Source: Clostridia bacterium
GTDB lineage: Bacteria; Bacillota; Clostridia; Oscillospirales; CAG-272
Length of the DNA: 64,000 nucleotides
Direction: 5' to 3'
Assembly (NCBI GenBank): GCA_017937135.1
Contig: JAGBEE010000003.1
Location: 8,637 to 72,636, forward strand
The position numbers and the translations under genes are program-made. This document shows, piece by piece, positions 7,475 through 22,493 of this stretch; position 1 is the stretch's first letter, and each line of letters opens with the position of its first letter. The notes beneath the pieces were generated by a model. It made no database searches. It was not told the origin of the DNA and saw only the letters and a list, made by a program, of their open reading frames with translations.

Positions 7475-7699
7475 ATGACTTGGTTCAATAAGCAAAGCCG
7501 TCTTGTACAAATTCTTCTTCTTTTGATTCCTGTTGTAAACTGGATTACAGAAATTGTTGTAAGATGGACCACATTCCTTAAAAAGCCCGGACTTATAAGA
7601 CTTATCGTATGTATTATCGTAACAGTTGGTGGTGGCTTTATATTTGGTTGGCTTGACCTTATCTGGATATTACTATTTAAACACTTCTTCCTTCAATAA
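7475..7699 (+). CDS. Small two-TM membrane protein, unknown function
   Basis: 74 aa from the ATG at 7475 (GGAGG 8 nt upstream; the TTG at 7460 is rejected). Two hydrophobic helices. Followed by a strong terminator. Confidence 0.55.
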   Translation: MTWFNKQSRLVQILLLLIPVVNWITEIVVRWTTFLKKPGLIRLIVCIIVTVGGGFIFGWLDLIWILLFKHFFLQ

Positions 7700-7707
7700 A
7701 TACATAA

Positions 7708-7740
7708 GGGGCTGTCGCATTAAGCGACGCCCCTTTTTTT
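7708..7740. terminator. Bidirectional terminator (outer hairpin of the left repeat)
   Basis: GGGGCTGTCGC-ATTAA-GCGACGCCCC followed by 8 T. It terminates the 7475..7699 gene on the + strand. Confidence 0.8.
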
Positions 7741-7834
7741 GGGGATAGTGAAATATGTGCAGAAGGGGTGAACTCGTACACGTAGGCGTACTTCGTACGG
7801 TAGAGTGCGAGGTCGCGCCTAAAAAACAGATGTT

Positions 7835-7871
7835 AAAATGAAGAGAGCTTGCAACAAAACCACAAGCTCTC
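7835..7871 (-). terminator. Inner terminator-like hairpin of the left repeat
   Basis: On the minus strand: GAGAGCTTGT...GCAAGCTCTC (one G:U) followed by TTCATTTT. Confidence 0.5.
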
Positions 7872-7972
7872 AACCTTTAAATTTTACTAAAATAAATGTT
7901 TATACTTAATTTCAAGAGGGAATGTGTCCTTATTTGGTCTGTGCTTATTGCAACATCCCCTTTTTGCTTGTA

Positions 7973-9934
7973 TTATTTTTCAATAACGAACACAGGCTTT
8001 TCACTAACGTTAATAGCTACAAAGCCATTTTCATTTTCAAGGTCCGTACGAAGACCATTATAGCGCTCGAATTCAAGCTCGGAGAGAATAAATTCGCCAT
8101 TTCCAACATTAAGCCTGTAGCCATCAACCTTGGTTGAATTGGAGGTTGGGCACCATACAGCATATCTTGCCTTGGAATCCTTTGTTAAGTATTTGAATAT
8201 CTTTACGTTTTCATTTCCAGAGTCAACCTCACACTCAAATGAAGTATTACCGATAATCTCCTTTGTTGTGTAAACGTAGTAGAAGGAGTCCTTTTTGTTA
8301 CCTTGAATTACGTTATTTGCGCTGATTTCGATAGGATGACGAACCAAGCCTGATGAGCCATATTTACCAACAGCAGTTTCCTCAGGACCACAGTCGCGTG
8401 ACATATACATAGCTGCGCGCTCAACGCCTATTGAGCTAAGGAGCAAATATTCACGAACAAGCCACATACCCTGTACCATACGTCCTGTATATTCACCGTA
8501 TGCGTGAGCAGATGTAGATGTTTTGTATGATTGGTTAGTATCCCAGCCAAATTCGGTAAGCCAAATTTCAAGGTTAGGATGATATCTGTCGCGCCAGTCC
8601 ATAATCTCCTCAAATGCGCCAACGATATTTCCTTCCTCGGGGCTAATACCGACGTAAATCTTATCTCCCTGGTCGCCTCTGTCCTCAATATTTATATCAA
8701 CTATCTTTTCGATTTCAGACTTGTCGTAGCACTTGCCACAGTATCTGTGCGCGTTGATTACGTCAAATGGGAGCTTGCCGTCTGGACGATTATGCTTTGC
8801 CCAAAACTCCATAGCACGTAGGTAGTTAGGGTTAAGACCTGCGCCACCCGACATAGACATAATAAAGTTAGGGTCAGCCTGCTTTACGCCGACATTTTTA
8901 TATTTTCCACAGTGTCCGTCGTAGCACATGCTTAAAAATGCTGCAAGCTCAAATGGTGAGAAGTACTGCTCACGACCTGACCACGTTCCGTCAGGCTCGT
9001 TAAGAGGCTCAAGAGCGTTAAGATATCCAAGACCTATCTTCTTTTCCTGTCCCTCATCAATCTGAATAAGCTCTGGGTCGATATTCTTGTTATGTCCGTA
9101 GCGCGCTACAAATTGGAAGAGCATAGTAGCATAGGACATATAGTTGTATGGGTCTGTTGAATCACAGGTTCCGTCCTTTGGAGTCCTTTTATGGTGAGTT
9201 GAAATAGTAGGGCAAACGTTTATTCCATATTCGTGCATACGCTTGTAATAATCGTCAAAGTCCCACATTTTATTTAAGCTTGGATTCATAGCTATAGTAG
9301 TAGCCTCACCGTTAGGAACGGTAGTCCACATCCAAGGGTGATACTCACGAATGTAGTTTACAGCACGGTTAATATCGTCAGCATCATTTATAAATGCATT
9401 CATACCAACAAAGCTGCCCAAATCCTTTTTCTTGTGTGGCTTTTTTGGCGGTGGAGTCAAATCAATATCCTCAACCTTATAGCCGTAAATTAAAATTTCA
9501 CTTGGCGCTTGGTTGTTGTTAAAGCTAAAGCTGATGTATCGAGTCTTGAAGCTCGTTTCAAAACCTGTCCACTTTCTTTGCTCGGGAGCAAGCACCTCGT
9601 TATATTCCCAGCTAAATGGAGTACCCATCTTAACTCTAACCTTACGAACACCGTAGTCAGCCTTGTCCTTTTCAGGCTTATAAGCGTCGTAGTCGTTGTA
9701 AATATACATATTAGTAATTTGGTAGATACCATCTAACTCAACAGTGAATGCAAGGTCGGTTTGACCAATCCACCAGTGGTCATGTCTTGGGTGAACCTGT
9801 GGAATTGCGCCCGGTGTGCCGTATAGTGGGTCACCATCGTTATCAAATTCGCAGAAAAAGTTAGAAACCCTTTCAATACCCATATCGTTGATAATCATTT
9901 CGGGTGTAATTCTGATTTTTTGTGAAGCTGCCAT
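7973..9934 (-). CDS. Clan GH-A-like glycoside hydrolase with an N-terminal beta-sandwich module; no signal peptide
   Basis: 653 aa. Acid/base-type LNEPDGTW and nucleophile-type WLTEFGWDTN motifs typical of (beta/alpha)8 clan A hydrolases. Paralog of 9968..11923. RBS AAGGAGAA. Confidence 0.75.
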   Translation of the reverse strand: MAASQKIRITPEMIINDMGIERVSNFFCEFDNDGDPLYGTPGAIPQVHPRHDHWWIGQTDLAFTVELDGIYQITNMYIYNDYDAYKPEKDKADYGVRKVRVKMGTPFSWEYNEVLAPEQRKWTGFETSFKTRYISFSFNNNQAPSEILIYGYKVEDIDLTPPPKKPHKKKDLGSFVGMNAFINDADDINRAVNYIREYHPWMWTTVPNGEATTIAMNPSLNKMWDFDDYYKRMHEYGINVCPTISTHHKRTPKDGTCDSTDPYNYMSYATMLFQFVARYGHNKNIDPELIQIDEGQEKKIGLGYLNALEPLNEPDGTWSGREQYFSPFELAAFLSMCYDGHCGKYKNVGVKQADPNFIMSMSGGAGLNPNYLRAMEFWAKHNRPDGKLPFDVINAHRYCGKCYDKSEIEKIVDINIEDRGDQGDKIYVGISPEEGNIVGAFEEIMDWRDRYHPNLEIWLTEFGWDTNQSYKTSTSAHAYGEYTGRMVQGMWLVREYLLLSSIGVERAAMYMSRDCGPEETAVGKYGSSGLVRHPIEISANNVIQGNKKDSFYYVYTTKEIIGNTSFECEVDSGNENVKIFKYLTKDSKARYAVWCPTSNSTKVDGYRLNVGNGEFILSELEFERYNGLRTDLENENGFVAINVSEKPVFVIEK

Positions 9935-9967
9935 CTTGTTTTCTCCTTGTTTTGTAGTAAGTAGTCT

Positions 9968-11923
9968 TTACTCACTAAATATAAGAATAGGTTTTTCGCT
10001 GACGTTTACTGTAACAATGCCATCCTTTACAGTAAGAGAAGAGGAAACACCGTCTGTATCTCCATTTTCAAACTGTGTAAGAGTAGCCTTAGTTCCATCT
10101 ATATTAAGCTTAAAGCCGTCAACCTTGATATCGTCCATGGTTGGACACCATAGAGCATAGCAGGATTTTCCCTCGCCGTTTTCAAAGCGATAAATCCAAA
10201 CGTTTTCATTTCCCGAATCGATAATCTCGGCAAAATGCATATCATTCATAGTCGCCTTTAGGGTGCTTATGTAATAATATGAGTCCTTGTATTCGCCATT
10301 AACCGTTACAACACCACTTGTGCCATATTTTCCAATGCCGGTTGCCTCATCACCCTCATCGCGTATCATATACATCGCAGCACGGTCAACACCAACAGAT
10401 GCGAACATAAAGTATGCACGCACAAGCCACATAGCTTGAAGCTGTCTTGCTGTGAAATTTGCGTATGGGTGGCACGCATTTTCGGTTTCATAGCTTGTAT
10501 TAGTATCCCAACCAAATTCAGTAACCCAAACCTCAATATCGGGATAATACTTATCTCTGTATTCGCAGAGCTTTTTAACCTCGTCGGTTATACCACCGAT
10601 TTCGGGGCAAACACCAACATAAACCCTGTATCCATTAAAGCTAATTAGCTTTTTACAATATGTATGAACATTAAATGCATCCATAGCAACCTTGCCATCG
10701 GAGCGATTATTTTCCATCCAGAAAACCATAGATTTTATGTATCTTGTCTGTATTCCCGCAAGACCTGCCATAGCAAGCTTCATATTTGGGTCTGCATTTT
10801 TGATGCCGATGCCACTCTTGCTCTCAGTCTTAACAGTGTTTACGTGTCCGTCATAAGCGCAGGAGGTGAGCGCTGCAAGCTCATATGGGGTAAAGCCGTC
10901 ATTTCCCTCACCATTTGGTTCATTTCCAGCCTCTATCCACGTAATGTAGCCAAGATTCATTCGTGTTCCACCTGATACGGTGTAAATTAAATCCTCGGTA
11001 TTTAACGGGTTGTTACCAAATCTAAGCGCTGTTTGATAAATAAGCTCGGAATACATAACGTATGCGCTCGGATCTGTTTTATCCTTGCCCTCAAGAGCAG
11101 GAGAAACGTTTGGGAACATAAAGCAGGGAACACACTGTACACCATGCCTTTTTGTTAATGAGCTATACGCGCTTGTGTATGTAGAGGTAACATTATCACC
11201 AAAGCTTACAGCCTCGTTTGGATATTTTGATTTATCATAAAGCCAAGCCCAGTTTATATAATCCCTAAAATAGCTTGCACATTTTATGTTCTTTTTGCCA
11301 TCTGAGTCTATTCTATTACCGTTCGCGCCAAGGAAATAGCTAAAATCCTTGTAATTGTGCGCCTCGGTATTGACAGGCTCATATTTTGATGTAGCATAGC
11401 CATAGAAAAGAATTTCCCAAGGAGCGTGCTCATTATCAAACAAAAGATTTACATATCTTGTTTCATAGTCAATCTCAATTTTGTGCCAGCCCTTGCCTAA
11501 GCCCTTCGCTTCATATTTTTCTTCATACTTAAAGGGAGTGCCAGCCTCGGCAGTAATTGATGAGGAGTCAGAGCCAAAATAAACGTAAAAGCATTCAACA
11601 TAGCATTTAAGTCCAAAATCAACAGTTACCTCGAAAATGTGTGTTTTGTCCTTGTCGGTTAAATCACCGTCATTATCTGCATCAAGCAGCTCAAGTGCGC
11701 TTTTTGGCGCTTGGTGCTTGGAAATATCTGGGGTGAGATGAATATTGCCAATGCTTGTTTGCTCATCAAACATAGGTGAGAAGTCCTTTAAGGACGTGCC
11801 TACATATGTCATATTCTCATAATCAATTGGTAGTAGCTTCGTGTCCTCTGAGCAAGCAGAGAAGGCTAATATAGCGCATAAAACCAAAGCGCAAAGGCAA
11901 ATCTTTAAAAACTTAGTCTTCAT
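9968..11923 (-). CDS. Clan GH-A-like glycoside hydrolase lipoprotein
   Basis: 651 aa. Lipobox signal peptide (LAFSAC). Motifs GNEPNGEG and WVTEFGWDTN. Same architecture as 7973..9934. Confidence 0.75.
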   Translation of the reverse strand: MKTKFLKICLCALVLCAILAFSACSEDTKLLPIDYENMTYVGTSLKDFSPMFDEQTSIGNIHLTPDISKHQAPKSALELLDADNDGDLTDKDKTHIFEVTVDFGLKCYVECFYVYFGSDSSSITAEAGTPFKYEEKYEAKGLGKGWHKIEIDYETRYVNLLFDNEHAPWEILFYGYATSKYEPVNTEAHNYKDFSYFLGANGNRIDSDGKKNIKCASYFRDYINWAWLYDKSKYPNEAVSFGDNVTSTYTSAYSSLTKRHGVQCVPCFMFPNVSPALEGKDKTDPSAYVMYSELIYQTALRFGNNPLNTEDLIYTVSGGTRMNLGYITWIEAGNEPNGEGNDGFTPYELAALTSCAYDGHVNTVKTESKSGIGIKNADPNMKLAMAGLAGIQTRYIKSMVFWMENNRSDGKVAMDAFNVHTYCKKLISFNGYRVYVGVCPEIGGITDEVKKLCEYRDKYYPDIEVWVTEFGWDTNTSYETENACHPYANFTARQLQAMWLVRAYFMFASVGVDRAAMYMIRDEGDEATGIGKYGTSGVVTVNGEYKDSYYYISTLKATMNDMHFAEIIDSGNENVWIYRFENGEGKSCYALWCPTMDDIKVDGFKLNIDGTKATLTQFENGDTDGVSSSLTVKDGIVTVNVSEKPILIFSE

Positions 11924-12109
11924 TTTATTTCATTAATATTCCATTCAAATTATCAATATAGAAAAATGCTACTTTAAGTATAATATAACATAGCGAAAAA
12001 GTCAATAAAATGTGCATTTTTTCCAAAAATAAATTCGGCTCAAATGTTATTTTTGCTTAAAGAGCACAAATATGCAAAATGCATCACATTAAGACAAAGA
12101 AAATATAGC

Positions 12110-12133
12110 TTTTTCAACAGTTGCGTTGAAAAA
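12110..12133. promoter_or_regulatory. Perfect 9-bp inverted repeat in the divergent control region
   Basis: TTTTTCAAC-AGTTGC-GTTGAAAAA, in the middle of the 453-bp spacer between the two divergent operons. Confidence 0.35.
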
Positions 12134-12300
12134 TACCCAACCCAGTGTTTAAAAAAGCATAAAAGATTACATTTTTTAAAAGCAAGATGCTTTGTTAATT
12201 TTTTTTGAACATACTACAAATAAAAAATGTTTTATCGACACTCCTTGACACTTTTTGCTTGATAACGCTCTTATATGGTAGCTTGTACCACTTGACAGAC

Positions 12301-12329
12301 TTGACTTTTTATATATTTTATGATATTAT
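12301..12329 (+). promoter_or_regulatory. Candidate SigA-type promoter of the lipoprotein operon
   Basis: TTGACT, 17-nt spacer, TATTAT. About 48 nt upstream of the ATG at 12377. Confidence 0.45.
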
Positions 12330-12376
12330 ATATTTCGGCTATAATATTAGTTAATAATTTATATAGGAGATAAAAT

Positions 12377-15300
12377 ATGAAGAAGATGAAAAAGGCGCTT
12401 ACCCTATTCTTAGCGCTCCTTATGCTCGCAACGGTTGTTTTGCAAATGGTTGCTTGCGGTGTGACAGAGGACCCTGTGGATACAGGCTCTGAGAATAATG
12501 TTGGTAATGCAACCTACACAGTGAAGATTAAAACACTTGGTAATATGCCACTTAGTGATGTTACTGTGTACTTAATCGACAAGGACGGAAATATCGTCGG
12601 CCGTCCAGGTGTAACCGATTTAGAGGGAGTTGTTTCCTTTACTGCACCTAAATCAAACGATTATTCTATTGAAATTTCTGACGGAGTGCCCGAGGGATAC
12701 TTAGTGGCAGACTCATATAAGCTAAGCGAGGTTGGAAATGAAATAATCCTTACATCAAAGGTAATTGATGATGAAAAAACCGACTCAAATTTTTATGAGA
12801 CGGGAGACATTATGTACGACTTTACCGTTACTGACGTTAATGGCAATGAGGTAAAGCTATCAAAGCTCCTTGAAAAGAACAAGGCAGTTTTATTAAACTT
12901 CTGGTATGTTGACTGCTCCTGGTGTCAAAAGGAATTCCCTGATATGAACGCAGTTTATAAGGACTATAAGGACAAGGGAATAGAAATTGTAGCTCTTAAT
13001 GCAGTTGATACAAATGCTGATATTCTTTCCTATAACAAGCCTTCATCAGGCTATCTTAAGGAGCCACTTGAATTTATTCTTGCTCGCGATACAGCAGGAA
13101 TTACATCTATGTTCAACGTTCAAGGCTTCCCAACAAGCGTAGTTGTTGACCGTTATGGTATGATTAGCGTTATTGAGTCTGGAGCTATAATAGGCGAATC
13201 ATATTTCAAAAATGCCTTTGACCACTTTATATCTCCTGTTTATGAGCAGGGCATTTATCAAAGCTTAAAGGAATTTACCCCTGTAATTAAGCCAAATGTT
13301 GATACTCCTACCTCAGAGGCTGTTAAGGATGCTGTACAAAATGGTGACTTTAACGCAACCTATTCAAATGATGAAAATGAGTACTCATGGCCATTTGTAA
13401 TTGGCGAATATGATGGCAAGAAGGTAATTTATCCTTCTAACAAGAAATACGACAACTCATATGCTACATTGTATATTGACATAGAGCTTCAAGCGGGTCA
13501 GGCATTTATGTTTGATTACTTCTCATCAACAGACCTTGGCTACGACGTTCTTACTATTTCTGCAACAGCAGACGGAATTACAAATGAAATTTATTCAATT
13601 TCAGGTATAGGCGAAGAGTGGGAGAAGTGCTGTGCATATGTTGCTAAGGAAACGGGAACATATCGCATTGCAATGTTCTATGTTAAGGATGAATCCGATT
13701 CCGAGGGCGATGATACAGTATATCTTACAAATCTAAGAGTTGTAGATAGCGAAGAGGTTGATGTTGAAACCTATATTACACGTCCGGCAGTATCAAAGCC
13801 AAACAGCACAGGCTCTGACTTTGAAAGCTATGTAGAAATTGTTCTTGGCGACGACGGATATTACCACGTTGGAACAAAGGACGGCCCAATTCTTCTTGCA
13901 AGACTTATGGGCGTAACACCATTTACTGATAAGTTCACAGACAGATACACAGTTAACGATACTCTTTATAAGAATTTTGTTACAACTGATGAAAACACAG
14001 GAATCTCTAAGTATGGTGAGTTCCTTATTGACGGTGAAAACTGCTTGACAGCATTTATTAGATATTGTAACTATGCATCAAATGCTTCTGTTACAGGCTT
14101 CTGTAGTGTAACACCTGAGCTCAAGACATATCTTGACGCATTTGCAAAGAAGTTCGGCACAGGCTATCACGAAAATCAATGGCTCCAAATGTGCTTCTAT
14201 CTTGATTCCTATGGAACAGACAAGGAATACGAGGACCCAATTAAGGGACTTACCTCATTTAGCGCATACGAGGCAGTAATGGGCGAGCCTAACTCTGTTT
14301 CATACAGTAAGATTCTTCTTCCAAGAGGAAAGCTTTATAGATTCGTTCCAACAGAATCTGGCGTATATAGATTCAGAACAAACTCTAAGCAAGAGGTTCT
14401 TGGCTGGATATTCATTAACGACCACGATTATTGGATAGCTAATGGCGATGATAGAACAATGTATGAGCAAAGTGATCAAGGCTCAAGAGAACCATACTAT
14501 ACAAATCTCGTTGACACAGGTAGAGTTGACCCTGAAACAAAGGAGCCAATTTACGAGGTTGATAACACAAATGCAGAAATCACTGCATACTTAGAGGCAG
14601 GTAAGGAATACTACGTATCCTTTGCATACTATGACCTCTATGGTGTAGGCACATTCACATTTGATATAAGCTACCTTGGTAGCACATACGACTTCTTTGT
14701 AGCTGCATCCTCTGGCGCATTTACAACAGAGCTTCTTCCAGGTGATATATTGGGTGATACTATCTCAGGTGGTGTTGATATTTATCTATCAGCTGACGGA
14801 TATTTCCATCACTTAATTAAGACCTACACAACAGAAGAAGAGGCGCAGGAGGCAGGATTAACTCTTGTACCAAGCGACGTATTACCTGATGATATGGGCA
14901 AATACTACGAGCTTTGTACCTATGATAAATGTACAGTATGTCCTAAGCATGCAAAGGAGCAAGGAGCAGACCTCTCAACAAAGTATTACCACTACCGTGG
15001 CTCAGTGCTTTATGCAGACTTTAAGTTCCCAACAAACATCTTCCAGACAGACCTTATTACTAACCTAATAGACAAGGGTGCGTTCAACTTCACAAGAACG
15101 GAAACAGATGAGGATGCGATTAAGAACGGCTATGTAACAAAGACCGATGACGAGCTCAAGAAGCTGTGGGGAGACAGCTATGAATATGCAATGGATTACT
15201 ATCAGATAGATGATTTAAGAAAAGGCATTTATCACGGAAAGGGTGAAGATAGAACGGAGGAAATTCGTTCTTACCTTGAAAGGATGATACCTGAAACAGT

Positions 15301-15466
15301 AGAAAATCCTGAGCTTCAGGGCTGTGTAATGGTTGATGAGGAGCTGGCTGACCTTCTCCAAAGCCTTATGGATAAGTACAGCTTGACAAACGAGGGCTAT
15401 TCAATAACACACTCATTTGCAAAGCTTTGCTACTACTACAAGCAGCTTGGCACAGTAATTGACTAA
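12377..15466 (+). CDS. Large surface lipoprotein with a prealbumin-like domain, a TlpA/ResA-like thioredoxin domain (CSWC) and uncharacterised C-terminal domains
   Basis: 1029 aa. Lipobox (QMVAC) then GVTEDPVDTGS. Carboxypeptidase-regulatory-like segment (YTVKIKT...VSFTAP). AhpC/TSA-type thioredoxin fold LLNFWYVDCSWCQKEFP...GFPTSVVVD. Confidence 0.85.
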   Translation: MKKMKKALTLFLALLMLATVVLQMVACGVTEDPVDTGSENNVGNATYTVKIKTLGNMPLSDVTVYLIDKDGNIVGRPGVTDLEGVVSFTAPKSNDYSIEISDGVPEGYLVADSYKLSEVGNEIILTSKVIDDEKTDSNFYETGDIMYDFTVTDVNGNEVKLSKLLEKNKAVLLNFWYVDCSWCQKEFPDMNAVYKDYKDKGIEIVALNAVDTNADILSYNKPSSGYLKEPLEFILARDTAGITSMFNVQGFPTSVVVDRYGMISVIESGAIIGESYFKNAFDHFISPVYEQGIYQSLKEFTPVIKPNVDTPTSEAVKDAVQNGDFNATYSNDENEYSWPFVIGEYDGKKVIYPSNKKYDNSYATLYIDIELQAGQAFMFDYFSSTDLGYDVLTISATADGITNEIYSISGIGEEWEKCCAYVAKETGTYRIAMFYVKDESDSEGDDTVYLTNLRVVDSEEVDVETYITRPAVSKPNSTGSDFESYVEIVLGDDGYYHVGTKDGPILLARLMGVTPFTDKFTDRYTVNDTLYKNFVTTDENTGISKYGEFLIDGENCLTAFIRYCNYASNASVTGFCSVTPELKTYLDAFAKKFGTGYHENQWLQMCFYLDSYGTDKEYEDPIKGLTSFSAYEAVMGEPNSVSYSKILLPRGKLYRFVPTESGVYRFRTNSKQEVLGWIFINDHDYWIANGDDRTMYEQSDQGSREPYYTNLVDTGRVDPETKEPIYEVDNTNAEITAYLEAGKEYYVSFAYYDLYGVGTFTFDISYLGSTYDFFVAASSGAFTTELLPGDILGDTISGGVDIYLSADGYFHHLIKTYTTEEEAQEAGLTLVPSDVLPDDMGKYYELCTYDKCTVCPKHAKEQGADLSTKYYHYRGSVLYADFKFPTNIFQTDLITNLIDKGAFNFTRTETDEDAIKNGYVTKTDDELKKLWGDSYEYAMDYYQIDDLRKGIYHGKGEDRTEEIRSYLERMIPETVENPELQGCVMVDEELADLLQSLMDKYSLTNEGYSITHSFAKLCYYYKQLGTVID

Positions 15467-15480
15467 TCAATAAGCTGATA

Positions 15481-15504
15481 TGCCACACGCACACGCGTGT
15501 GGCA
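15481..15504 (+). other. Intercistronic GC-rich hairpin
   Basis: TGCCACACGC-ACAC-GCGTGTGGCA (10 bp), with no T-run. It lies between the first and second lipoprotein genes. Confidence 0.5.
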
Positions 15505-15537
15505 TTGGCTCTTATGATAGTGAAATTTGGAGTAAAA

Positions 15538-17208
15538 ATGAAGAAATCAAAGATACTTTTAATAATAAGCGTGCTCGTTTGCTTTATGCTCCTTGTGTGC
15601 TCCTGTGGAGAGGGTGATCCCGTAGATACATCGAGTGGCACAAATGACGAAACGACACAGACATATACCGTAAAGGTAGTAAACTATAAGGGTGAAGCGC
15701 CGGATAAGGACATTATAGTTGACTTTATGAAGGGCGAACAAATAGTAACTACAAAAAGAACAAATGACAAGGGCGAGGTAAGCGTAGCTCTTGAAAAGGG
15801 CGAATACAAAATAGTGCTTTCATATGCAAAGGGCGCGCCCTATTATGACGCAAGCAAGGCAATATTGACACCAGAGAATAACTCAGTTGAAATTATGCTT
15901 TACGACCTTCCTTTACAGGATAAAATTACAATTTCTCCTGCATATTGGAATGACGAAACGCTTGAATATGACCGTAAGGTATATAATGCAGTTCTTATCA
16001 ACGAGGGTGCAACCCTTGTAAATATAGATGACAAAAACGGTTCATATTACGTATTTACCCCAACGCGAGGCGGTATTTATAAAATTGGCTGTATTGCAAG
16101 CGCCGACGTTAAATTCGGATATTTCGGTGATGCAAACTACGTTCAAGCCGAGAGCCTTGAGCATTTATACAAGGACGGATATTTTGAAATTGAAATTAAG
16201 GACAGTGGTATAAACATAGGAGAGGGAGGAACAACACGCTTGGTATTTGGTGTTACCTCTAAAAAATCAACCGACTGTGTTATTACTATTGAGCGTACAG
16301 GTAATCCTAAGGCAGACCCGCTAAGAATTGACGAAATGCCAAGAGAGGTCTCAGATACAGAATACAAATACGACTATCTTAATTACTTAATAACCGACTT
16401 TGATATTACAAATAAGGAGCTGAAAATCGTATTTAACGAAAACGATGGCTTCTATCATTTGAATACACAAGACGGACCTGTTATTTTTGTAAGAGTAGCA
16501 AGCGATAATGCTTATTCAATATCCTTCTATGATATATGTCAGCTCACATCGCTTCATATGTATGAATATGATGAGGACGGCGCACCTATAAAATACCATA
16601 ATTACAACCCAATTTTTGAGGCATATGCAGAAAAATGCGATGGTGCAGGAATTTGTCCTCTTACAAGCGAGCTTATGAATGCTATCAAAAATGCAGGCGA
16701 GGAAAAGAATTGGTGGAACTTTGAAAATGAGGAAACACCAATGCTTTCAATGACAATTGAAGGCTTGGAATCTGGCGTAACAAAGGAAAACATCTGCCTT
16801 GAAAATGCGTGGGCGTTTGCTTGCTGTTACGTGGATTTTGATGCATTTGGCTCGGAAAGCAGTCCAATCAAATTAGAAATTGGCGACCCTTACGAGAGTA
16901 ACGTAAATGGTACATCTGTTACAAGCTATATAAAATACAACGCCTTAGTAGGCACAGAGGCAACATACCTTAAGCCAGCAACCTTAGGTGGTTATTTAAC
17001 TATTGAGGGCGCAAAAAATATTACAGTAGTATATGATGGCGTAACATACGTAGCTGATAGTGAGGGCAATATAACCGTTGATGGTGTAGAATTTGAGGGC
17101 GAGAATATAGTAGTTCATATCAGTGACCCGGAAAAGACAGCCACAATCACAGCGACAGAAAATGAAAGCGAAATTCGCTTCCAATTTACAACAAGCGAAT
17201 TAAGCTAA
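15538..17208 (+). CDS. Surface lipoprotein with a prealbumin-like domain and a domain shared with 12377..15466
   Basis: Start moved to the ATG at 15538 (GGAG upstream). Lipobox LLVCSC then GEGDPVDTSSG. Segment NDGFYHLNTQDGPVIFVRV...CPLTSELMNAIK aligns with DDGYYHVGTKDGPILLARL...CSVTPELKTYLD of the upstream protein. Confidence 0.8.
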   Translation: MKKSKILLIISVLVCFMLLVCSCGEGDPVDTSSGTNDETTQTYTVKVVNYKGEAPDKDIIVDFMKGEQIVTTKRTNDKGEVSVALEKGEYKIVLSYAKGAPYYDASKAILTPENNSVEIMLYDLPLQDKITISPAYWNDETLEYDRKVYNAVLINEGATLVNIDDKNGSYYVFTPTRGGIYKIGCIASADVKFGYFGDANYVQAESLEHLYKDGYFEIEIKDSGINIGEGGTTRLVFGVTSKKSTDCVITIERTGNPKADPLRIDEMPREVSDTEYKYDYLNYLITDFDITNKELKIVFNENDGFYHLNTQDGPVIFVRVASDNAYSISFYDICQLTSLHMYEYDEDGAPIKYHNYNPIFEAYAEKCDGAGICPLTSELMNAIKNAGEEKNWWNFENEETPMLSMTIEGLESGVTKENICLENAWAFACCYVDFDAFGSESSPIKLEIGDPYESNVNGTSVTSYIKYNALVGTEATYLKPATLGGYLTIEGAKNITVVYDGVTYVADSEGNITVDGVEFEGENIVVHISDPEKTATITATENESEIRFQFTTSELS

Positions 17209-17222
17209 TATAGGAGGAAAAT

Positions 17223-19589
17223 ATGGCAAATATCAAAAAAATGCCCCTTATTTTACTTGTGCTTTGTATTCTTATGAGTGCACTTTTAGTTATCACATCA
17301 TGTGGTGGCACAGAGGACCCGGTTGATACAAGCTCAGGCACAGAATCGGGCAATGGTGGTACAAACACAGACCAAACACCAAAATACGTGATTACCGTGC
17401 TTGATGAATACGAGCTTGGCGTTGAGGGCGTTACAGTTCAGCTTTGCATTGGCGAAAACTGCTTAATGCCTGTAAAAACAGATGCAAACGGTAATGCAAC
17501 CTTTGAAAGCGAGCTTACAGGAACAGCATATGTAACAATAAATAGCGTTCCCGATGGCTACGAAAAGCCAAGCGAGAAGGTTTATCTTGAGGACGGACAA
17601 ACAACCGTAACAATTGAGCTGAATTCAATTGTTGAATACAGCGTAAAGGCTAAGCTTGCGCTTTTTGATAAAAATCTTGTTAATGTAGTTGCAGAGCTAA
17701 GAAGGGTTAGCGATAACTCAGTAGTTAATACACAGGTAACAAACGAATATGGTGTAGCAAAATTCTTAGCGCCAAATGGTGAATATTACGTTTCATTCTC
17801 ACACAAAAACCCAGCCTTCAAGCTCTCAAACCCCGATAAGGAGGGCGAGGCAACAAAGGCATATGGCACATCAAGGCTCATAAATGCAGAATTTATCGAA
17901 ACCTTTGACACACTTGACTACAAGCTCAACATAAAAAATGTAGCTGGCAAGGCAGAGTATGGCATTGTGGTTGAGCTTTACGATGAAAGCTTTACGCTCA
18001 TTGATACATATTATTCCAATGAAAATGGCGACATAGAATTTAGCGCACAAAACGGAAAATATATTGCAGTTGCAAGCTTTAAGAATACACAAACAGTGTA
18101 TGCTTTCAGCCAATATGATTCAATCAGTGGCGAAATGGTGCTTAACACTGAGGATAAGGGCTCAAGCGAAAGCTATGCAGAGCTTGTTCTTAGTATGTTC
18201 GGACATAACGCAACAAGTGGAAAATGGTATTACACATTGAATACCGAAAAGAAAATGATAGTTGTATATAGCGAAACAGCAACAGTTGTATATAACGGAA
18301 AAACCTATACCCCTGATAACGAGGGCAAAATCAGTGTAGTATTTGAAAATGGTAATGGAGTATATCAGATTAACGGTGCAGATGCATACGTTGAATATAT
18401 GGGCGCACCGGGAACTGAATCAAATCCAATTATTATTGACTCAGCAAGCATAAACGGCTATGAAATAACCCTCGATCTTTTAGAGGGTGAGAGCTACTAT
18501 TATGCCTTCAACGCAAATGACGATGCTACAATTACTGTAACAACCAATGATAGCATTCAAATAGTAATAAATGAGGTTTTAAAAAGCTCTTTACCTGTAA
18601 TAAAAGGTGACTACGTTGTAATTCGCCTTTCATCTGATGGAGGCAAAATTGAGGGCGCAAAGGTTAATTTTGCATTTGCAAAGACATATGCAGATTATCA
18701 GATAACCGTTAATAAGGATGGCCAGAGCGCACCTGATGGCACAGCCGTTGAGCTTTACAAGTATGACACAAGCACATGGGAATATCAATTAGTTACAAGC
18801 ACTACAACTAAAAATGGTATTGCAGCCTTTGAAAATGTTGAGGTTTATGCATTTTACTATGTAAAGGTAGTTGCACCTGCTGATTACGAGACTGAAAATG
18901 AGTATGAGCCATTCTTCAATGGCGCAACAAGCACAACAATAGAGCTTAGCCACGTAAGAGATGGTTCACTTGAATATCCATTCTTAATTGATGATTCATA
19001 TGCAGGCGGACTCTTATATGATTATGATTTTACCATAGGCGCAGGTGAAACACTCTACTTTGAGGCAGCACCAAATAACTGTGTGCTCAGCGTAAGCATA
19101 AGTGGCATTATTGTTCAGATATTAGAGGATAAGAATAGCGACGGAATTTACGAAACAGTAACAGATGTTGATTCAAGCTACGTATTTGAGGACAAAATGA
19201 ACCCACCAACAATTCTTATTTCTATAAAGAATGAGGGCGAGGCTGCAGAGGGATCAATTTCCTTTGGCGCTAATAATGGCGAGGTAGGCTCATCCTATGA
19301 TAACGCAATTGAGCTTGACGAGGCAGGAGCATATATAGCTGAAATTACAGAGGGCAAAAATGTTTATTATCTGTACAATGGCGACTATACAGGAAGCACC
19401 TTAAAAATCACAGTAACAGATGCAAACGGAAAGCTCATTTCCGTTACAGCAACTCTTGCTGGCACAAGCGAGTCAGTAGAGACAGACAATGAAATAACCT
19501 CTGATTCAGGCGCATCACTAATATTTGCAATCTCATCACAGGATGCTGATTTTACAGGAAATATTAGCTTTACTATAACAGTTGAATAA
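17223..19589 (+). CDS. Surface lipoprotein with repeated prealbumin-like and PPC-like beta-sandwich modules
   Basis: 788 aa. Lipobox VITSC then GGTEDPVDTSSG. About 4 carboxypeptidase-regulatory-like segments and about 3 segments of the G(S/T)ExxP(I/F)xI...YY type. RBS AGGAGG. Confidence 0.8.
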   Translation: MANIKKMPLILLVLCILMSALLVITSCGGTEDPVDTSSGTESGNGGTNTDQTPKYVITVLDEYELGVEGVTVQLCIGENCLMPVKTDANGNATFESELTGTAYVTINSVPDGYEKPSEKVYLEDGQTTVTIELNSIVEYSVKAKLALFDKNLVNVVAELRRVSDNSVVNTQVTNEYGVAKFLAPNGEYYVSFSHKNPAFKLSNPDKEGEATKAYGTSRLINAEFIETFDTLDYKLNIKNVAGKAEYGIVVELYDESFTLIDTYYSNENGDIEFSAQNGKYIAVASFKNTQTVYAFSQYDSISGEMVLNTEDKGSSESYAELVLSMFGHNATSGKWYYTLNTEKKMIVVYSETATVVYNGKTYTPDNEGKISVVFENGNGVYQINGADAYVEYMGAPGTESNPIIIDSASINGYEITLDLLEGESYYYAFNANDDATITVTTNDSIQIVINEVLKSSLPVIKGDYVVIRLSSDGGKIEGAKVNFAFAKTYADYQITVNKDGQSAPDGTAVELYKYDTSTWEYQLVTSTTTKNGIAAFENVEVYAFYYVKVVAPADYETENEYEPFFNGATSTTIELSHVRDGSLEYPFLIDDSYAGGLLYDYDFTIGAGETLYFEAAPNNCVLSVSISGIIVQILEDKNSDGIYETVTDVDSSYVFEDKMNPPTILISIKNEGEAAEGSISFGANNGEVGSSYDNAIELDEAGAYIAEITEGKNVYYLYNGDYTGSTLKITVTDANGKLISVTATLAGTSESVETDNEITSDSGASLIFAISSQDADFTGNISFTITVE

Positions 19590-19690
19590 ACAACATAAAA
19601 AGGGGATGTTGCAATAAGTTTAGACCAAATAAGGACACATTCCCTCTTGAAATTAAGTATAAACATTTACTTTAGTAAAATTTTAAGGTT

Positions 19691-19727
19691 GAGAGCTTGC
19701 GGTTTTGTTGCAAGCTCTCTTCATTTT
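19691..19727 (+). terminator. Inner terminator-like hairpin of the right repeat
   Basis: GAGAGCTTGC-GGTTTTGTT-GCAAGCTCTC followed by TTCATTTT. Confidence 0.55.
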
Positions 19728-19820
19728 AACACCTGTTTTTTAGGCGCGACCTCGCACTCTACCGTACGAAGTACGCCTACGTGTACGAATCTCGCCTTGG
19801 GCACACATTTCACTATCCCT

Positions 19821-19858
19821 AAAAAAGGGGCGTCGCTTCAATGCGACAGCCCCTTTTG
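19821..19858. terminator. Bidirectional terminator (outer hairpin of the right repeat)
   Basis: A-run, GGGGCGTCGC-TTCAAT-GCGACAGCCCC, T-run. It serves both the + strand operon and the convergent gene 19914..20177. Confidence 0.8.
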
Positions 19859-19913
19859 TTATAATATCAAACCAAATAGCATAAATTTTATAAAACAATA
19901 ACATATGTGTGAA

Positions 19914-20177
19914 CTATTTTAATGCTTCTATCGCTAATTTATGACCTATTTCAAAGCCCTTTGTAAAATATTCCTCGTAAAAAAGCATGTTTAATTCACA
20001 TAGCAGGTCCTCGTATTGCTCTACTATTTCATTATTTTCCTTGTCAAGTAATGATAAAATTTTATCATATGCATCGTTAACTTGCTTGGTTAATCGAATT
20101 ATATTTCCGTTTTCAATTCCACATTTTTCGTAATAAAACAAATTACCTCTAAAAATTTTCTTAATTGTTCCTTTCAT
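19914..20177 (-). CDS. Small helical protein of unknown function
   Basis: 87 aa, predicted all-helical, ending FTKGFEIGHKLAIEALK. Resembles small proteins often paired with XRE regulators in Firmicutes accessory DNA (from memory, unverified). RBS AAAGGAG. Confidence 0.6.
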   Translation of the reverse strand: MKGTIKKIFRGNLFYYEKCGIENGNIIRLTKQVNDAYDKILSLLDKENNEIVEQYEDLLCELNMLFYEEYFTKGFEIGHKLAIEALK

Positions 20178-20189
20178 AGCTGCTCCTTT

Positions 20190-20207
20190 TGCAACTTAAA
20201 TGTTGCA
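20190..20207. promoter_or_regulatory. Perfect palindrome at the 5' end of the 19914..20177 gene
   Basis: TGCAAC-TTAAAT-GTTGCA, located immediately upstream of that gene's RBS within the divergent spacer. Confidence 0.35.
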
Positions 20208-20287
20208 TTTTTAACTATTATAGCAAATAATAATGTAAAATTCAAGTGCAATTTATAATTTGTAATTCAAAAATGAGAGGGACATTT

Positions 20288-20506
20288 ATGTATTTGTATG
20301 AAAGAATGCGCCATTTGAGAGAAGATAACGATAAAAATCAAGAGCAAATAGCAAGCATTTTAGGCATAAAGCGTCAACAGTATGCTCGATATGAAAAAGG
20401 ATTGCATGAAATACCCTTGCATTATATAATCACTCTTGCAAAATATTATAATGTCAGTCTTGATTATCTTACAGGGCTAATTGATACACCTAGAAATTTG
20501 TATTAA
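20288..20506 (+). CDS. XRE-family HTH transcriptional regulator
   Basis: 72 aa from the ATG at 20288 (GAGAGGGA upstream). HTH motif QEQIASILGIKRQQYARYEKGLHEIPLHYIITLAKYYNVSLDYLTG. Confidence 0.8.
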   Translation: MYLYERMRHLREDNDKNQEQIASILGIKRQQYARYEKGLHEIPLHYIITLAKYYNVSLDYLTGLIDTPRNLY

Positions 20507-20511
20507 ATAAA

Positions 20512-20545
20512 AAAATCTCAACGAGCCTTCGTTGAGATTTTTTAT
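20512..20545. terminator. Bidirectional rho-independent terminator
   Basis: AAATCTCAACG-AGCCTT-CGTTGAGATTT flanked by A and T runs, between convergent genes. Confidence 0.85.
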
Positions 20546-20546
20546 T

Positions 20547-22493
20547 TTATTTTTCTGTTTTTTGTAGCTGCTCCTTAACAACAGCCTCAAGCTCTGCCAA
20601 TTTTACAGCATATGGCCAATGCTCAATGATAACTCCGTTTTCATCAAGAATAACAGTCATTGGATAGGTGCTGTTTTTTCCACCCATTGTTGTATAATAC
20701 ATATCCTTGTTGCTTCCTTCCTCTAAAGGAATGTCACGCACAAAGACCATTTCGGTATTTGGATATTTTTCACTTATCCATCCCGATGGCTCGTGTAAGT
20801 AATAAACCGTATGTACTGCAACAACCGTTACATTGTCCTTATATTTGCTTGCAATTTCATCAAAGTAGGGTAGCTCCTCAACACAAGGCGTGCACCATGT
20901 GCCCCAGAAGTTTATAATAGTAATTTTTCCCTTATTATTGGCAGGATTAAACTTAACTCCGGTTGGACCATTTGCATCAAATATCTCAAGCTCAAAGTCG
21001 GGGGCAAGGTTACCAACCTCGTTTCCTACAACTAATTCATCTCCCTCGCCGTTGCCGTTGTCATCAACAACGGGTGGTTCCTCGGTGGGAGTGTCGATAA
21101 AGTTGTAATATACGAGTGCGCCAATCAAAAGAGCACTCATAAGAACACCGGCTACGATTTTGAAAATAAGCTTGCGTCTTTCAACCCTTTTTTTCTTTTT
21201 TGTAGCATCGTCTGAGCCTTGTGTATTTTGCTCAGCGTTGTTATTGTTATTATTTGCAGCTGTATCAATTTCATCAGGAGCTAAGAAAATCTTAGAGCCC
21301 TTCCAGCTAATAGCCTTTGTAGGACAAACGTCAATACATTCGCCACAGCTGATACATTCGTGGTCTCCAACGTGCTTAATATCCATTTTACACTTGGTTA
21401 CACAAAGTCCACAGTTAGTGCATTTTGGCTTTTCAAGCTTTATTCCAAATAGTGAAATCTTATTGAAAATACCATAAATTGCGCCGAGTGGACATATGAA
21501 ACGGCAGAATATTCTGTAAATGAATATTGAGCCGACTACAAAGCTAACAAGTAATAGGAATTTCCAAGTAAATAACGGACCAAGCATTGGGAACATCCAT
21601 TCGTTTGCCGCATTGGATAAAAGTCCAAGCGCGCCACCAATAGTGCCGGCAGGACATATGTAAGCGCAGAATGCAGGAAGCGCAACGTCCTTTAGTCCAT
21701 ATAATATCGGTACAATAACAACAAAGAATATTAAAATTACATATTTAAAGTAGGAAAGAACACGTGTAACACGATTTTTCTTTAGCTTAGGAGTCTTTAT
21801 CTTGAAGAAAAGCTCCTGTACAAGACCAAACGGACATAAGAAGCCACAGATAAATCTGCCCAAAAGCATACCATAAAGGAGTAAAATTCCCAAAACGTAC
21901 ATAGGCGTTTTCTTGGATGCCTTATTTAACTCACCCTGCAAGGAGCCAAGAGGACAAGCAGTTGTCGCACCGGGGCAGGAATAACAGTTAAGACCGGGCG
22001 TGCAAAGATTTTTTGTAGCGCCGTCGAAAATGTTGCCTGTAATATAGCCCTTTATGTTTGCATTGAACAAAAGAGCAGAGTAAAGCTGAATAATTCTACG
22101 TCTTGAAGGTATTAGTGATTTTAATCTCTCTTTAAATGACCTTTTTGCCTTTTTTTGTGGGGGAGTGTCTGTTTTTTCGCTATTTTTCTCGGAAGCATCA
22201 TCTTCCTTTGGCTCGTCATTTACATCGCCTTGCTCGGAATATTCCTCGTTTTGTTCGTTTTTTTCTACATATTCCTGCTCATATTGAGTATCAACATCAA
22301 ATTCTTGATTTTCTTCGGTATAGTCGCTATTATTTTCTATCTCATCAATTTCTTCATTTGATTCATACTTATCGTATTCAAGCTCCTTTTCCTTATAGGT
22401 GTCGGAGTAGAGTGGATTAGTAGTATAGACAAAGCCTCTTTCGGAGGAATAAAAATTCAAAACTACTCTTTTAAATTGTCGTTCTTTTGCCAT
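20547..22493 (-). CDS. NapH-like membrane polyferredoxin fused to a C-terminal extracytoplasmic TlpA-like thioredoxin domain
   Basis: Start at the ATG at 22493 (AGGAGG 8 nt upstream). The features, in order: an acidic ~130-aa N-terminus; CYSCPGATTACPLG plus three CxxxCPxG motifs (CGFLCPFG, CAYICPAG, CRFICPLG) in TM regions; two ferredoxin motifs CTNCGLCVTKC and CISCGECIDVCP; KKKKRVERRK followed by a TM helix; and a thioredoxin fold INFWGTWCTPCVEELP. Confidence 0.85.
   Translation of the reverse strand: MAKERQFKRVVLNFYSSERGFVYTTNPLYSDTYKEKELEYDKYESNEEIDEIENNSDYTEENQEFDVDTQYEQEYVEKNEQNEEYSEQGDVNDEPKEDDASEKNSEKTDTPPQKKAKRSFKERLKSLIPSRRRIIQLYSALLFNANIKGYITGNIFDGATKNLCTPGLNCYSCPGATTACPLGSLQGELNKASKKTPMYVLGILLLYGMLLGRFICGFLCPFGLVQELFFKIKTPKLKKNRVTRVLSYFKYVILIFFVVIVPILYGLKDVALPAFCAYICPAGTIGGALGLLSNAANEWMFPMLGPLFTWKFLLLVSFVVGSIFIYRIFCRFICPLGAIYGIFNKISLFGIKLEKPKCTNCGLCVTKCKMDIKHVGDHECISCGECIDVCPTKAISWKGSKIFLAPDEIDTAANNNNNNAEQNTQGSDDATKKKKRVERRKLIFKIVAGVLMSALLIGALVYYNFIDTPTEEPPVVDDNGNGEGDELVVGNEVGNLAPDFELEIFDANGPTGVKFNPANNKGKITIINFWGTWCTPCVEELPYFDEIASKYKDNVTVVAVHTVYYLHEPSGWISEKYPNTEMVFVRDIPLEEGSNKDMYYTTMGGKNSTYPMTVILDENGVIIEHWPYAVKLAELEAVVKEQLQKTEK

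Follow-up and report, generated by a model that had tools for sequence, protein, structure and literature searches.

A dispersed, probably MITE-like repeat of uncultured ruminant-gut Clostridia found in two inverted copies around an 11.6-kb surface-protein block

Several kinds of small repeats and MITEs described in other bacteria offer themselves for comparison with a repeat that lies at gene ends. The Correia elements of Neisseria are 100-155 bp long, with 26-bp terminal repeats and a TA duplication, and one paper reportedly concerns chromosomal rearrangements in N. gonorrhoeae. REP/BIME sequences are typically located downstream of genes or in the space separating convergent ones, and they influence the 3' ends of mRNAs. 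Composites bounded by MITEs come with a target duplication and enclose cargo unlike the DNA around it, and the IS6/IS26 elements have terminal repeats of the type GGnnCTGTTGCAAA together with an 8-bp target duplication. In a review, SPRITE of Streptococcus pneumoniae is described as a rho-independent terminator-like element, the Correia element is given the 204 bp of its first description, ERIC sequences at the 3' ends of Yersinia genes are stated to alter transcript levels, and MITEs, like IS elements, are listed as hotspots for homologous recombination (PMC10969869). Moreover, a 439-bp MITE pair flanks integrons, and the structure was reportedly mobilised into an ORF (PMC3934969).

Here we analyse a block of surface-protein genes with an inverted repeat copy at each end, located in a 64-kb window (the whole stretch of DNA studied, from a Clostridia bacterium assembly). 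The genes and the two repeat copies are arranged as follows.

7475..7699, plus strand: gene of a conserved small protein of 74 aa, convergent on the left copy, its stop 8 nt from the outer terminal repeat
7703..7965, plus (display) strand: left repeat copy, outer end 7703/7708, inner end 7960/7965
7973..9934, minus strand: end gene of the left operon, 653 aa, paralogue of 9968-11923, no Pfam hit
9968..11923, minus strand: lipoprotein-type protein of 651 aa, weak Glyco_hydro_cc match
12377..19589, plus strand: right operon of three lipoproteins (Pfam, N-termini)
12377-15466, plus strand: AhpC/Redoxin-domain lipoprotein of the right operon (Pfam)
15499-17208, plus strand: second lipoprotein of the right operon (lipoprotein-type N-terminus)
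17223-19589, plus strand: SdrD_B/SpaA-like-domain lipoprotein, end gene of the right operon (Pfam)
19597..19859, minus strand: right repeat copy, inverted, outer end 19859/19853, inner end 19602/19597
19914..20177, minus strand: DUF6809 gene, 87 aa, convergent on the right copy

An earlier note on this DNA had described an inverted pair of about 263 bp, identical at some nine of ten positions, each copy beginning 7-8 nt past the stop of an outward-facing end gene. Gapped blastn of 7703-7965 against the reverse complement of 19597-19859 bears this out with 93.2% identity over 265 nt (E=3e-90), and the distance from the stop codon of the end gene was measured as 7 nt to the repeat start and 12 nt to the GGGG of the terminal repeat in both copies. 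The best-matching inverted arms in a repeat search of the window were 7774-7965 and 19597-19788 (192 nt, 96%), extra arms at 7731-7771, 7722-7743 and 7702-7721 stretching the match to 7702/7703-7965 versus 19597-19859; these two are the only copies of the element in the window. The alignment contains both the variable patch, a single one at about 7755-7773, and the 1-nt indels that the note had mentioned, and its longest exact run is 56 nt, 7774-7829 being the same in both copies. The description of the block held as well: the gene coordinates 7973-9934 (minus) and 17223-19589 (plus) were correct, the divergent spacer 11924-12376 measures the 453 nt given for it and has promoter-like sites on both strands, and the three proteins taken for lipoproteins (P3, P4 and P5) have N-termini of this type. 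A Pfam search of the block and its immediate surroundings agreed with the note in detecting no transposase, integrase or invertase, and the block itself has no mobility genes. The label 'GH-A-like', used for the two proteins of the left operon, is based on a single weak Glyco_hydro_cc match of 9968-11923 (Pfam, E=1.3e-4) and on the 36% identity between 7973-9934 and 9968-11923. The G+C content of the block is 0.35-0.44, the same as that of the flanks.

We consider it likely that the arms are two copies of a small non-coding, MITE-like dispersed repeat and not the borders of a switch or cassette; the framing of the block by the repeats looks incidental. Measured from one terminal repeat to the other, it is 252-329 bp long (about 250-330 bp), and its parts in the two copies are listed below.

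7708..7722, plus strand: outer terminal inverted repeat GGGGCTGTCGCATTA, left copy
7708..7740, plus strand: outer hairpin GGGGC-T-GTCGC/GCGAC-GCCCC, then T7, terminator-like for the convergent 74-aa gene
7741..7832, plus strand: conserved GC-rich core, between two opposed terminator-like hairpins
7833..7871, minus strand: inner hairpin GAGAGCTTG...CAAGCTCTC, then TTCATTTT, terminator-like, in the direction of 7973-9934
7946..7960, minus strand: inner terminal inverted repeat GGGGATGTTGCAATA, left copy, starting 12 nt past the stop of 7973-9934
19602..19616, plus strand: inner terminal inverted repeat GGGGATGTTGCAATA, right copy, starting 12 nt past the stop of 17223-19589
19691..19729, plus strand: inner hairpin and T-tract, right copy, in the direction of gene 17223-19589
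19730..19820, minus strand: conserved core, right copy (sequence comparison)
19821..19853, minus strand: outer hairpin and T-run, right copy, terminator-like for the DUF6809 gene
19839..19853, minus strand: outer terminal inverted repeat GGGGCTGTCGCATTG, right copy

The terminal inverted repeats of 15 nt, GGGGCTGTYGCATTA at the outer and TATTGCAACATCCCC at the inner end, occur nowhere but at the ends of the element, both in the window and across 24 loci, and 13 of the 15 positions agree between GGGGCTGTYGCATTA and GGGGATGTTGCAATA (reverse complement). The terminal repeats may have the CTGTTGCA core in common with the IS6/IS26 type, from which the element could then derive; an 8-bp duplication was not found at the element copies. 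A direct-repeat check revealed no target-site duplication at the left or right copy, at two further copies (L007 and L008) or around the pair, in agreement with the earlier note, and the flanks of these four copies are merely A-rich and T-rich, continuing the terminal repeat. Hairpin and T-run motifs of both kinds were detected in both window copies, and both strands of the element give more stable folds than do shuffled controls (z = -4.9 and -5.7). The outer hairpin has compensatory variants in other copies (GGGGC/GCCCC, GAGGC/GCCTC, GGAGC/GCTCC) and, given the A-run and T-run that flank it, is potentially a bidirectional terminator in the left copy. The inner hairpin, which in the left copy lies about 100 nt past the stop of 7973-9934, shows compensatory changes at three pairs across copies. 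The GC-rich core (about 90-110 nt) includes the hairpin GGCGTACTTCGTACGGTAGAGTGCGAGGTCGCGCC at 7785-7819 and is near-invariant in five species. A coding element was rejected, as the candidate short ORFs lie in different frames between copies and a 43-nt insertion breaks the frame. Analogies to group II introns, IS200/IS605, IS110 bridge RNA and integron attC sites were dropped in the absence of a matching end motif, a conserved flank target or an array.

The search for copies in relatives using a 20-mer from the element core gave 11 sites, spread over four Clostridia MAG species of deer and yak gut origin: seven in RGIG4241 (5/7 at contig ends), two in RGIG8539 and one in each of two further MAGs. 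The copies found in this way align along the entire element with 67-84% identity and adjoin unrelated genes, namely those for ribosomal L1 (rplA), ClpX, FolD, PNP_UDP, PEPCK, a trypsin-like protease, PTS EIIC and a serine recombinase. All 11 copies begin their inner terminal repeat at -13 to +30 nt relative to a stop codon, and in one of the loci (L010) this repeat provides the last codons and the stop codon of the gene; the element nearly fills short spacers past gene ends. In the species studied here it is present at no fewer than three sites. Matches of the 20-mer in high-GC Methylobacterium, Polyangiaceae and Parvularculaceae had no further likeness to the element and were treated as unrelated. 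No match to the element was obtained in plasmid and phage collections (blastn, distant mode) or in viral contigs and JGI metagenomes (two patterns each). Neither the window nor any examined locus contains an autonomous element bearing these terminal repeats, and we know of no cognate transposase. The same loci gave no clean pair of a filled and an empty site; one of them (L067) lacks the element after an orthologous small gene, but the synteny on its other side differs, so that the inner boundary alone is defined. As in MITEs, the element is small and without a transposase ORF, has terminal inverted repeats and occurs in dispersed copies; the target-site duplication of MITEs is missing. A generic repeat at many unrelated intergenic sites is what the earlier note had named as speaking against a special role of the pair, and such a repeat was found. 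Since copies follow a variety of unrelated housekeeping genes across four related MAG species, and the present species has a third site as well, the note's suggestion of a shared 3' module comes closest: the module at gene ends stands, whereas its duplication specifically onto the two operons gives way to genome-wide dispersal. This documents a previously undescribed repeat family of uncultured ruminant-gut Clostridia, and the hairpin patterns suggest that its copies probably provide terminators for many genes.

The 11.6-kb block consists of two divergent operons. It is bounded on both sides by convergent gene junctions with one copy each, and with the inner end of the copy towards the block at each junction the copies are mutually inverted. 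As either orientation is possible at a convergent junction, the prior for an inverted pair is about one in two. Should the copy number of the species really be as low as 3, chance would hardly place two copies 11.6 kb from each other. Read from its outer end, each copy presents a hairpin and T-run facing the neighbour gene, next the GC-rich core and, in the inner half, an opposite-facing hairpin and T-tract about 100 nt past the gene stop, followed by the inner terminal repeat. At the level of such patterns, the copies are predicted to supply terminators for four converging transcription units, and the family may have spread by transposition via a transposase encoded elsewhere.

Copies of the element seem to recombine with each other. 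A third copy exists in this species, and in the same-species assembly GCA_965318215.1 the junctions are DUF6809-element-102-aa gene (L052) and 211-aa gene-element-P5 (L062). The outer part of the L052 element matches the right copy of the window while its inner part differs, the L062 element is the converse, with an inner part identical to the right copy over 202 nt, and the putative crossover of right and third copies falls within a 59-60-nt identical core. From this mosaic, the right copy has apparently been exchanged reciprocally with the third copy; the exchange rests on two MAG contigs, for which reciprocal assembly chimeras are possible, and would represent either a large inversion or a chimeric assembly. 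Furthermore, the left and right copies of the window share derived states, while the orthologous left copy of GCA_045532915.1 retains the states of the third copy and of other genomes, which indicates gene conversion between left and right copies. A role of the element copies as substrates of homologous recombination is supported by these comparisons.

Such recombination could in principle act on the block itself, and one of the three readings offered by the earlier note was a segment that can invert by homologous recombination; exchange between the inverted copies would then flip 7966-19596, and both orientations would coexist in the population. An arm of 192 nt at 96%, with an exact run of 56 nt, would be sufficient for occasional RecA-dependent exchange, the copies do recombine, by left/right gene conversion and by exchange with the third copy, and many short-read contigs break within the right copy. 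However, all junction-spanning contigs (about 8 samples, 3 MAGs) have the window orientation and none a 74aa-P5 or DUF6809-GH1 junction; the same orientation is found in the whole-block contigs L058 and GCA_965321255.1 and in every junction-spanning same-species assembly except one MAG, GCA_965318215.1, although short-read assemblies give the majority arrangement and rare left-right inversions would go unseen in them. The contig breaks at the right copy, which might have pointed to heterogeneity, are explained by repeats of k-mer length; Logan contigs, for example, stop on entering a 48-nt exact run. An invertase-driven switch would be expected to have an invertase or recombinase gene close by, short inverted repeats, a promoter or coding end altered by flipping, and both orientations. 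No invertase or other recombinase domain lies in or beside the block, one orientation is seen, and with internal promoters and terminator-like ends an inversion is predicted to change no expression. We thus regard the flipping of 7966-19596, for which no support was obtained, as very unlikely. Likewise very unlikely is a composite-transposon-like cassette, 12.2 kb in all, that would be moved as one by a transposase working on the outer terminal repeats of the two bracketing MITE copies. These outer ends do form a matched inverted pair with the same terminal repeat, enclosing complete operons with their own predicted promoters, and MITE-flanked integrons (PMC3934969) and TIME-COMPs (PMC13367494) provide precedents. 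Nevertheless, the pair has no flanking direct repeat, the G+C content is native, and in no assembly examined is the block absent or relocated, its locus being the same throughout. In GCA_965318215.1, moreover, the right copy is parted from its outer flank with the block still beside nrdG, so the unit is not acting as a single entity. Gain or loss as a unit, another reading of the note, has no support, and a presence/absence variant of the block was not found in the assemblies examined. Homologues of the 74-aa and DUF6809 proteins in relatives (66-84% identity) stand in quite different gene contexts, so that no empty site is definable for the block. We see no sign of inversion of the 11.6-kb block itself, or of its movement in one piece.

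An explanation of another kind is that the element serves chiefly as a structured RNA or single-stranded DNA with a function, such as a multi-copy non-coding RNA gene or a guide or binding module, whose 'terminal repeats' are a closing stem and which is conserved for its function and not a transposon relic. A decaying relic leaves the very high conservation of the core between opposed hairpins unexplained, about 100 nt being near-invariant in the five species while the 3' half is just ~70% conserved. A 23-bp long-range stem and the core hairpin are present, the four U-G pairs of the latter on the display strand correspond to A-C mismatches on the other strand, hairpin-sized insertions sit at fixed points among the aligned copies, and there are some compensatory changes, affecting 5 pairs (10 cells versus 4.1 expected, a modest excess from pair counts on a hand-drawn structure). 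On the other hand, the conservation of the core is inflated by the use of a core 20-mer for locating the copies, most of the covariation falls within the terminator hairpin, pairing along the long stem is partly lost in the right and third copies, and RNAalifold on the full alignment returned local hairpins only. Rfam gave no relevant match to the element even at E<=10 (best 26 bits versus a threshold of 70), and over the whole window at gathering thresholds it gave just tRNA and 6S RNA, outside the element, for which a conserved promoter was not found either. With the core flanked by two opposed terminator-like hairpins, and with multi-copy status, high within-genome similarity and terminal repeats that fit a mobile repeat, we judge this explanation unlikely. 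There is a slimmer chance that the core (90-110 nt, between the two opposed hairpins and closed by the 23-bp long-range stem) functions as a structured module of RNA or single-stranded DNA. It could then guide a recombinase or nuclease encoded elsewhere, or be recognised by it, and the family would represent mobile non-coding RNA elements of a new kind instead of a decaying MITE.

As a MITE-like dispersed repeat, the family is of practical importance, since it breaks short-read assemblies at gene ends, which matters for the curation of MAGs, and knowledge of it is useful when judging structural variation in the genomes of these Clostridia. Gene conversion, and one or more large rearrangements between strains, also seem to be driven by it. 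The 11.6-kb surface-protein block is two ordinary divergent operons that happen to have copies of a dispersed repeat at their ends, and the tempting over-reading as a switch or cassette is removed.

The bracketing of a gene block by two non-autonomous copies recalls the MITE-flanked integrons and TIME-COMPs (PMC13367494), but in contrast to MITE-bounded composites the composition is native, a duplication is lacking and no mobility polymorphism was found. With the Correia repeat-enclosed elements, MITEs of Neisseria, the element shares terminal inverted repeats able to form a long stem and multiple copies adjoining genes, and Correia elements affect transcript ends; it differs in its terminal repeats of about 15 nt, or a 23-bp imperfect stem, in having no visible duplication and in its position at gene 3' ends, Correia elements being upstream of genes. 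Like SPRITE, RUP and BOX, it is a small, intergenic, highly structured non-coding dispersed repeat of Firmicutes with a terminator-like hairpin and without an encoded transposase. It has no sequence similarity to these three, SPRITE being compared by its description in a review only (PMC10969869), is longer (250-330 bp), has two opposed terminator-like hairpins around a conserved GC-rich core and has so far turned up in no more than a few uncultured ruminant-gut Clostridia. REP/BIME and ERIC are without sequence relationship to the element, and they differ from its ~250 bp in that REP units are palindromes of 20-40 nt moved by RAYT and ERIC is about 127 bp long; it is the location at gene 3' ends that the element has in common with both.

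A repeat search of the window and gapped blastn bore out the inverted repeat that the earlier note had described on either side of the 11.6-kb block. The repeat search gave inverted arms at 7774-7965 / 19597-19788 (192 nt, 96%), which shorter arms widen to 7702/7703-7965 versus 19597-19859, and blastn aligned the left with the right copy at 93.2% over 265 nt (E=3e-90). The single variable patch and the few 1-nt indels mentioned previously are both visible in the left/right alignment, and the longest exact run common to the two copies is 56 nt. Further copies, full or partial, were not found in the 64-kb window. Also as described earlier, the repeats lie just past the stop codons of the two end genes (7973-9934, minus strand, and 17223-19589, plus strand), 7 nt in each case; the divergent promoter region is a 453-nt spacer with promoter-like sites on both strands, and Pfam detects no gene for a transposase, integrase or invertase within the block or next to it.

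The paralogous hydrolase-like proteins 7973-9934 and 9968-11923 are 36% identical and differ at their N-termini: the former begins MAASQKIRITPEM, without a signal, and the latter has a lipoprotein-type signal (MKTKFLKICLCALVLCAILAFSAC) if read from the 651-aa start, gene callers alternating between 651 and 601 aa. AhpC/Redoxin-type thioredoxin-fold domains occur in the first lipoprotein of the block (12377-15466) and in a flanking 654-aa Fer4 protein (20547-22511), and NrdD (4038-6446) carries a C-terminal thioredoxin/glutaredoxin-like domain.

On the plus strand of the left copy, which serves as display strand, the anatomy of the element is as follows.

7708-7722, plus strand: outer terminal inverted repeat, GGGGCTGTCGCATTA
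7708-7733: outer hairpin, its first arm being the outer terminal repeat, followed by seven T
7741-7832: GC-rich stretch, containing a hairpin at 7785-7819
7843-7871: inner 13-bp hairpin, followed on the opposite strand by TTCATTTT
7946-7960: inner terminal inverted repeat, an imperfect reverse complement of 7708-7722; the other strand reads GGGGATGTTGCAATA

The two 15-mers are confined to the four element ends in the window and to element ends in every related locus, and are therefore regarded as terminal inverted repeats; their CTGTTGCA core may be reminiscent of IS6/IS26 ends. In a terminator scan, the outer hairpin with its seven T scored as terminator-like for the convergent neighbour, a 74-aa gene on the left (7475-7699) and a DUF6809 gene on the right (19914-20177). 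Since the inner hairpin is followed by the tract on the opposite strand, it is terminator-like towards the end gene of the block, about 100 nt beyond whose stop codon it lies. Moreover, GGGGATAGTGAAAT.TGTGCAGA (7741-7763) could pair with TCTGTGCTTATTGCAACATCCCC (7938-7960) in a predicted 23-bp imperfect long-range stem, and folding beats shuffled controls on both strands (z = -4.9 and -5.7). Rfam has no match to the element; the only Rfam or ARAGORN matches in the window are a 6S RNA (55399-55625, minus strand, 53.9 bits) and a tRNA-Ser(CGA) (52572-52663, plus strand).

A search with a 20-mer from the element core located 11 sites, spread over four MAG species of Clostridia or Eubacteriales that come from roe deer, water deer and another sample set. 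Each of them aligns along its full length with the window copies (67-84% identity) and has the same ends. Six high-GC matches to the 20-mer had no similarity to the element beyond it. Seven sites belong to MAG RGIG4241, and five of these lie at contig ends, as multi-copy repeats usually do. Aligned copies carry hairpin-sized insertions at two fixed points, and the terminal repeats are separated by 252-253 bp in the window copies, by 293 bp at locus L007 and by 329 bp at locus L008. The adjoining genes have no relation to one another or to the block (ribosomal protein L1, ClpX, FolD, PNP_UDP phosphorylase, PEP carboxykinase, a trypsin-like protease, PTS EIIC, a serine recombinase and unannotated lipoproteins). 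Wherever the inner repeat can be recognised (11 of 11 copies), it starts -13 to +30 nt from the stop codon of the gene reading into it, so that a start a few nucleotides past a stop codon is a trait of the family and not specific to the block; at locus L010 the last three codons and the stop come from the repeat itself. The outer end looks onto the end of a convergent gene in 7 cases and onto the next gene's start in 3. The element thus fills spacers at gene ends.

At L007:654-2873 (RGIG4241 contig JAFTXO010000043.1), a copy abuts the stop codon of a 739-aa ORF that joins a large serine recombinase (Resolvase, Recombinase, Zn_ribbon_recom) to SpoVT_C at residues 613-738, followed by an Amidase_3-like gene. 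The arrangement suggests that a skin-type intervening element or a prophage has inserted in spoVT, the recombinase reading across the attachment site.

Exact-protein look-ups retrieved the locus from about eight metagenome samples and three NCBI MAGs of the same species. The left junction, from the 74-aa gene through the element to the end gene 7973-9934, is spanned many times, always arranged as in the window, and the whole block with both junctions has the window orientation in a 90-kb contig and in GCA_965321255.1 (loci L053 plus L035). Among the recovered same-species contigs, none joins the 74-aa gene to the lipoprotein gene 17223-19589, or DUF6809 to 7973-9934. Many short-read contigs end inside the right copy, at the onset of exact shared runs of 31-56 nt, which identifies these breaks as an assembly effect.

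In GCA_965318215.1 and GCA_965321255.1, about 230 nt of unrelated sequence stand in place of window region 20178-20547, which holds a 72-aa HTH_3 gene between DUF6809 and a 648-aa Fer4/redoxin gene; DUF6809 is only 92% identical to the window, the flanks 99.4%. In both MAGs the 788-aa SdrD_B/SpaA-like lipoprotein (17223-19589) is split into ORFs of 352 and 350 aa, which reflects a frameshift pseudogene or else an error in sequencing. GCA_965321255.1 contig 41 (L054:7747-9164) has an IS3-type transposase pair (HTH_Tnp_1 plus rve) beside a second DUF6809/HTH_3 module (66% identical); this pair has no link to the repeat.

The left copy in GCA_045532915.1 differs from that of the window at about 10 positions, yet its flanks are 98.8% identical. 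At these positions it has CAGACATTAAAA-G and GTGTCTGTTTTTG, the states of a third same-species copy and of other species, whereas the window's left and right copies have CAGRTGTTAAAATG and GTGTCCTTATTTG in common. Derived states common to paralogous copies and absent from the orthologous one imply that sequence was copied between the sites, pointing to gene conversion between left and right copies. The third copy came to light in GCA_965318215.1, where a 202-kb contig (L052) runs from the DUF6809 side through a complete element to a 102-aa gene, tRNA_edit, a LexA-like gene and PFOR, and a second contig (L062) from the lipoprotein end of the block through a complete element to a 211-aa gene and a type III glutamine synthetase. 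Set against the window's right copy, the L052 element matches it exactly in the outer part and departs from it in the inner part; the L062 element does the reverse, its outer part differing and its inner 202 nt being identical, and the switch point lies within a 59-60-nt identical core. Judged from the sequences, this is the pattern that a reciprocal exchange between the right and the third copy leaves behind, the latter normally sitting between the 211-aa and 102-aa genes. As these copies are mutually inverted, exchange yields a large inversion, one that would not be limited to the block but take the left copy and nrdDG along with it. Such an inversion is likely in GCA_965318215.1, although one wrong repeat resolution by the assembler gives the same two contigs; real or chimeric, the species has at least three element sites.

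In a relative with 93-94% identity (L067), a simple terminator of its own, and not the element, comes after the orthologue of the 102-aa gene. The similarity to L052 breaks off precisely at ...CTAAATTAAA|GGGGATG, and this point defines the inner boundary of the element; the other side is not syntenic. In L067 (4907-10312, against L052:10599-11563), a 1549-aa RHS-repeat protein precedes a pair of small genes (about 102 aa each) that may be immunity genes; GCA_965318215.1 is without the RHS gene and keeps one small gene, adjoining the repeat.

The earlier note had offered three readings of the pair: an invertible segment, a cassette gained or lost as a unit, and a 3' module shared by both operons. 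For the first, all junction-spanning contigs apart from the exchanged junctions of GCA_965318215.1 have the window orientation, and with both putative promoters inside the block and putative terminators at both ends a flip would be predicted not to rewire expression; that the copies recombine holds good, by gene conversion and by exchange with the third copy, but the block itself was not seen inverted. Nor is there any sign of the block moving as a cassette: no direct repeat was found around either copy or around the pair, G+C (0.35-0.44 per kb) is the same as in the flanks, and Pfam detects no mobility genes in or beside the block. In more distant relatives, homologues of the 74-aa and DUF6809 genes lie in unrelated contexts and offer no definable empty site. 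The repeat is indeed a shared 3' module, but as a generic dispersed repeat that also stands at unrelated genes. Overall, the earlier proposal is partly supported: the repeat is a generic dispersed element that recombines, and inversion or movement of the block is unsupported.

The pairing data fit a structured RNA and a transposon with terminal repeats and hairpins alike. When the structure is drawn by hand, 91% of cells form pairs, and sliding the partners lowers this to 33-54%, a gap that is expected because the structure was drawn from the same sequences. Two-sided changes occur at five pairs, the majority of them in the inner terminator hairpin; no variation is seen in the core hairpin, where the display strand has four U-G pairs, and the long stem is interrupted along its inner part in both the right and the third copy. 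The core, lodged between terminator-like hairpins that point in opposite directions, is strongly conserved over about 100 nt, in part by ascertainment because copies were found with the core 20-mer; the stretch GGGGATAGTGAAATGAGTGCAGAAGGTGTGAACTCGTACACGT, 20-60 nt from the probe, is equally conserved. This core is the sole feature that could lift the element beyond an ordinary dispersed repeat.

The element fits the description of a bacterial MITE in four respects: size, terminal repeats, lack of an ORF and dispersed copies. Since no target duplication is visible in the copies examined and no autonomous partner is known, it is filed as MITE-like, with transposition as an inference. Pairs of MITEs are able to mobilise the DNA between them, according to two reports (PMC3934969, PMC13367494); the defining signs of such MITE-bounded composites are absent from the window pair. 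In function the element is most like the SPRITE (terminator-like), Correia and ERIC repeats, which when transcribed form stems, alter mRNA 3' ends and act as recombination hotspots (PMC10969869).
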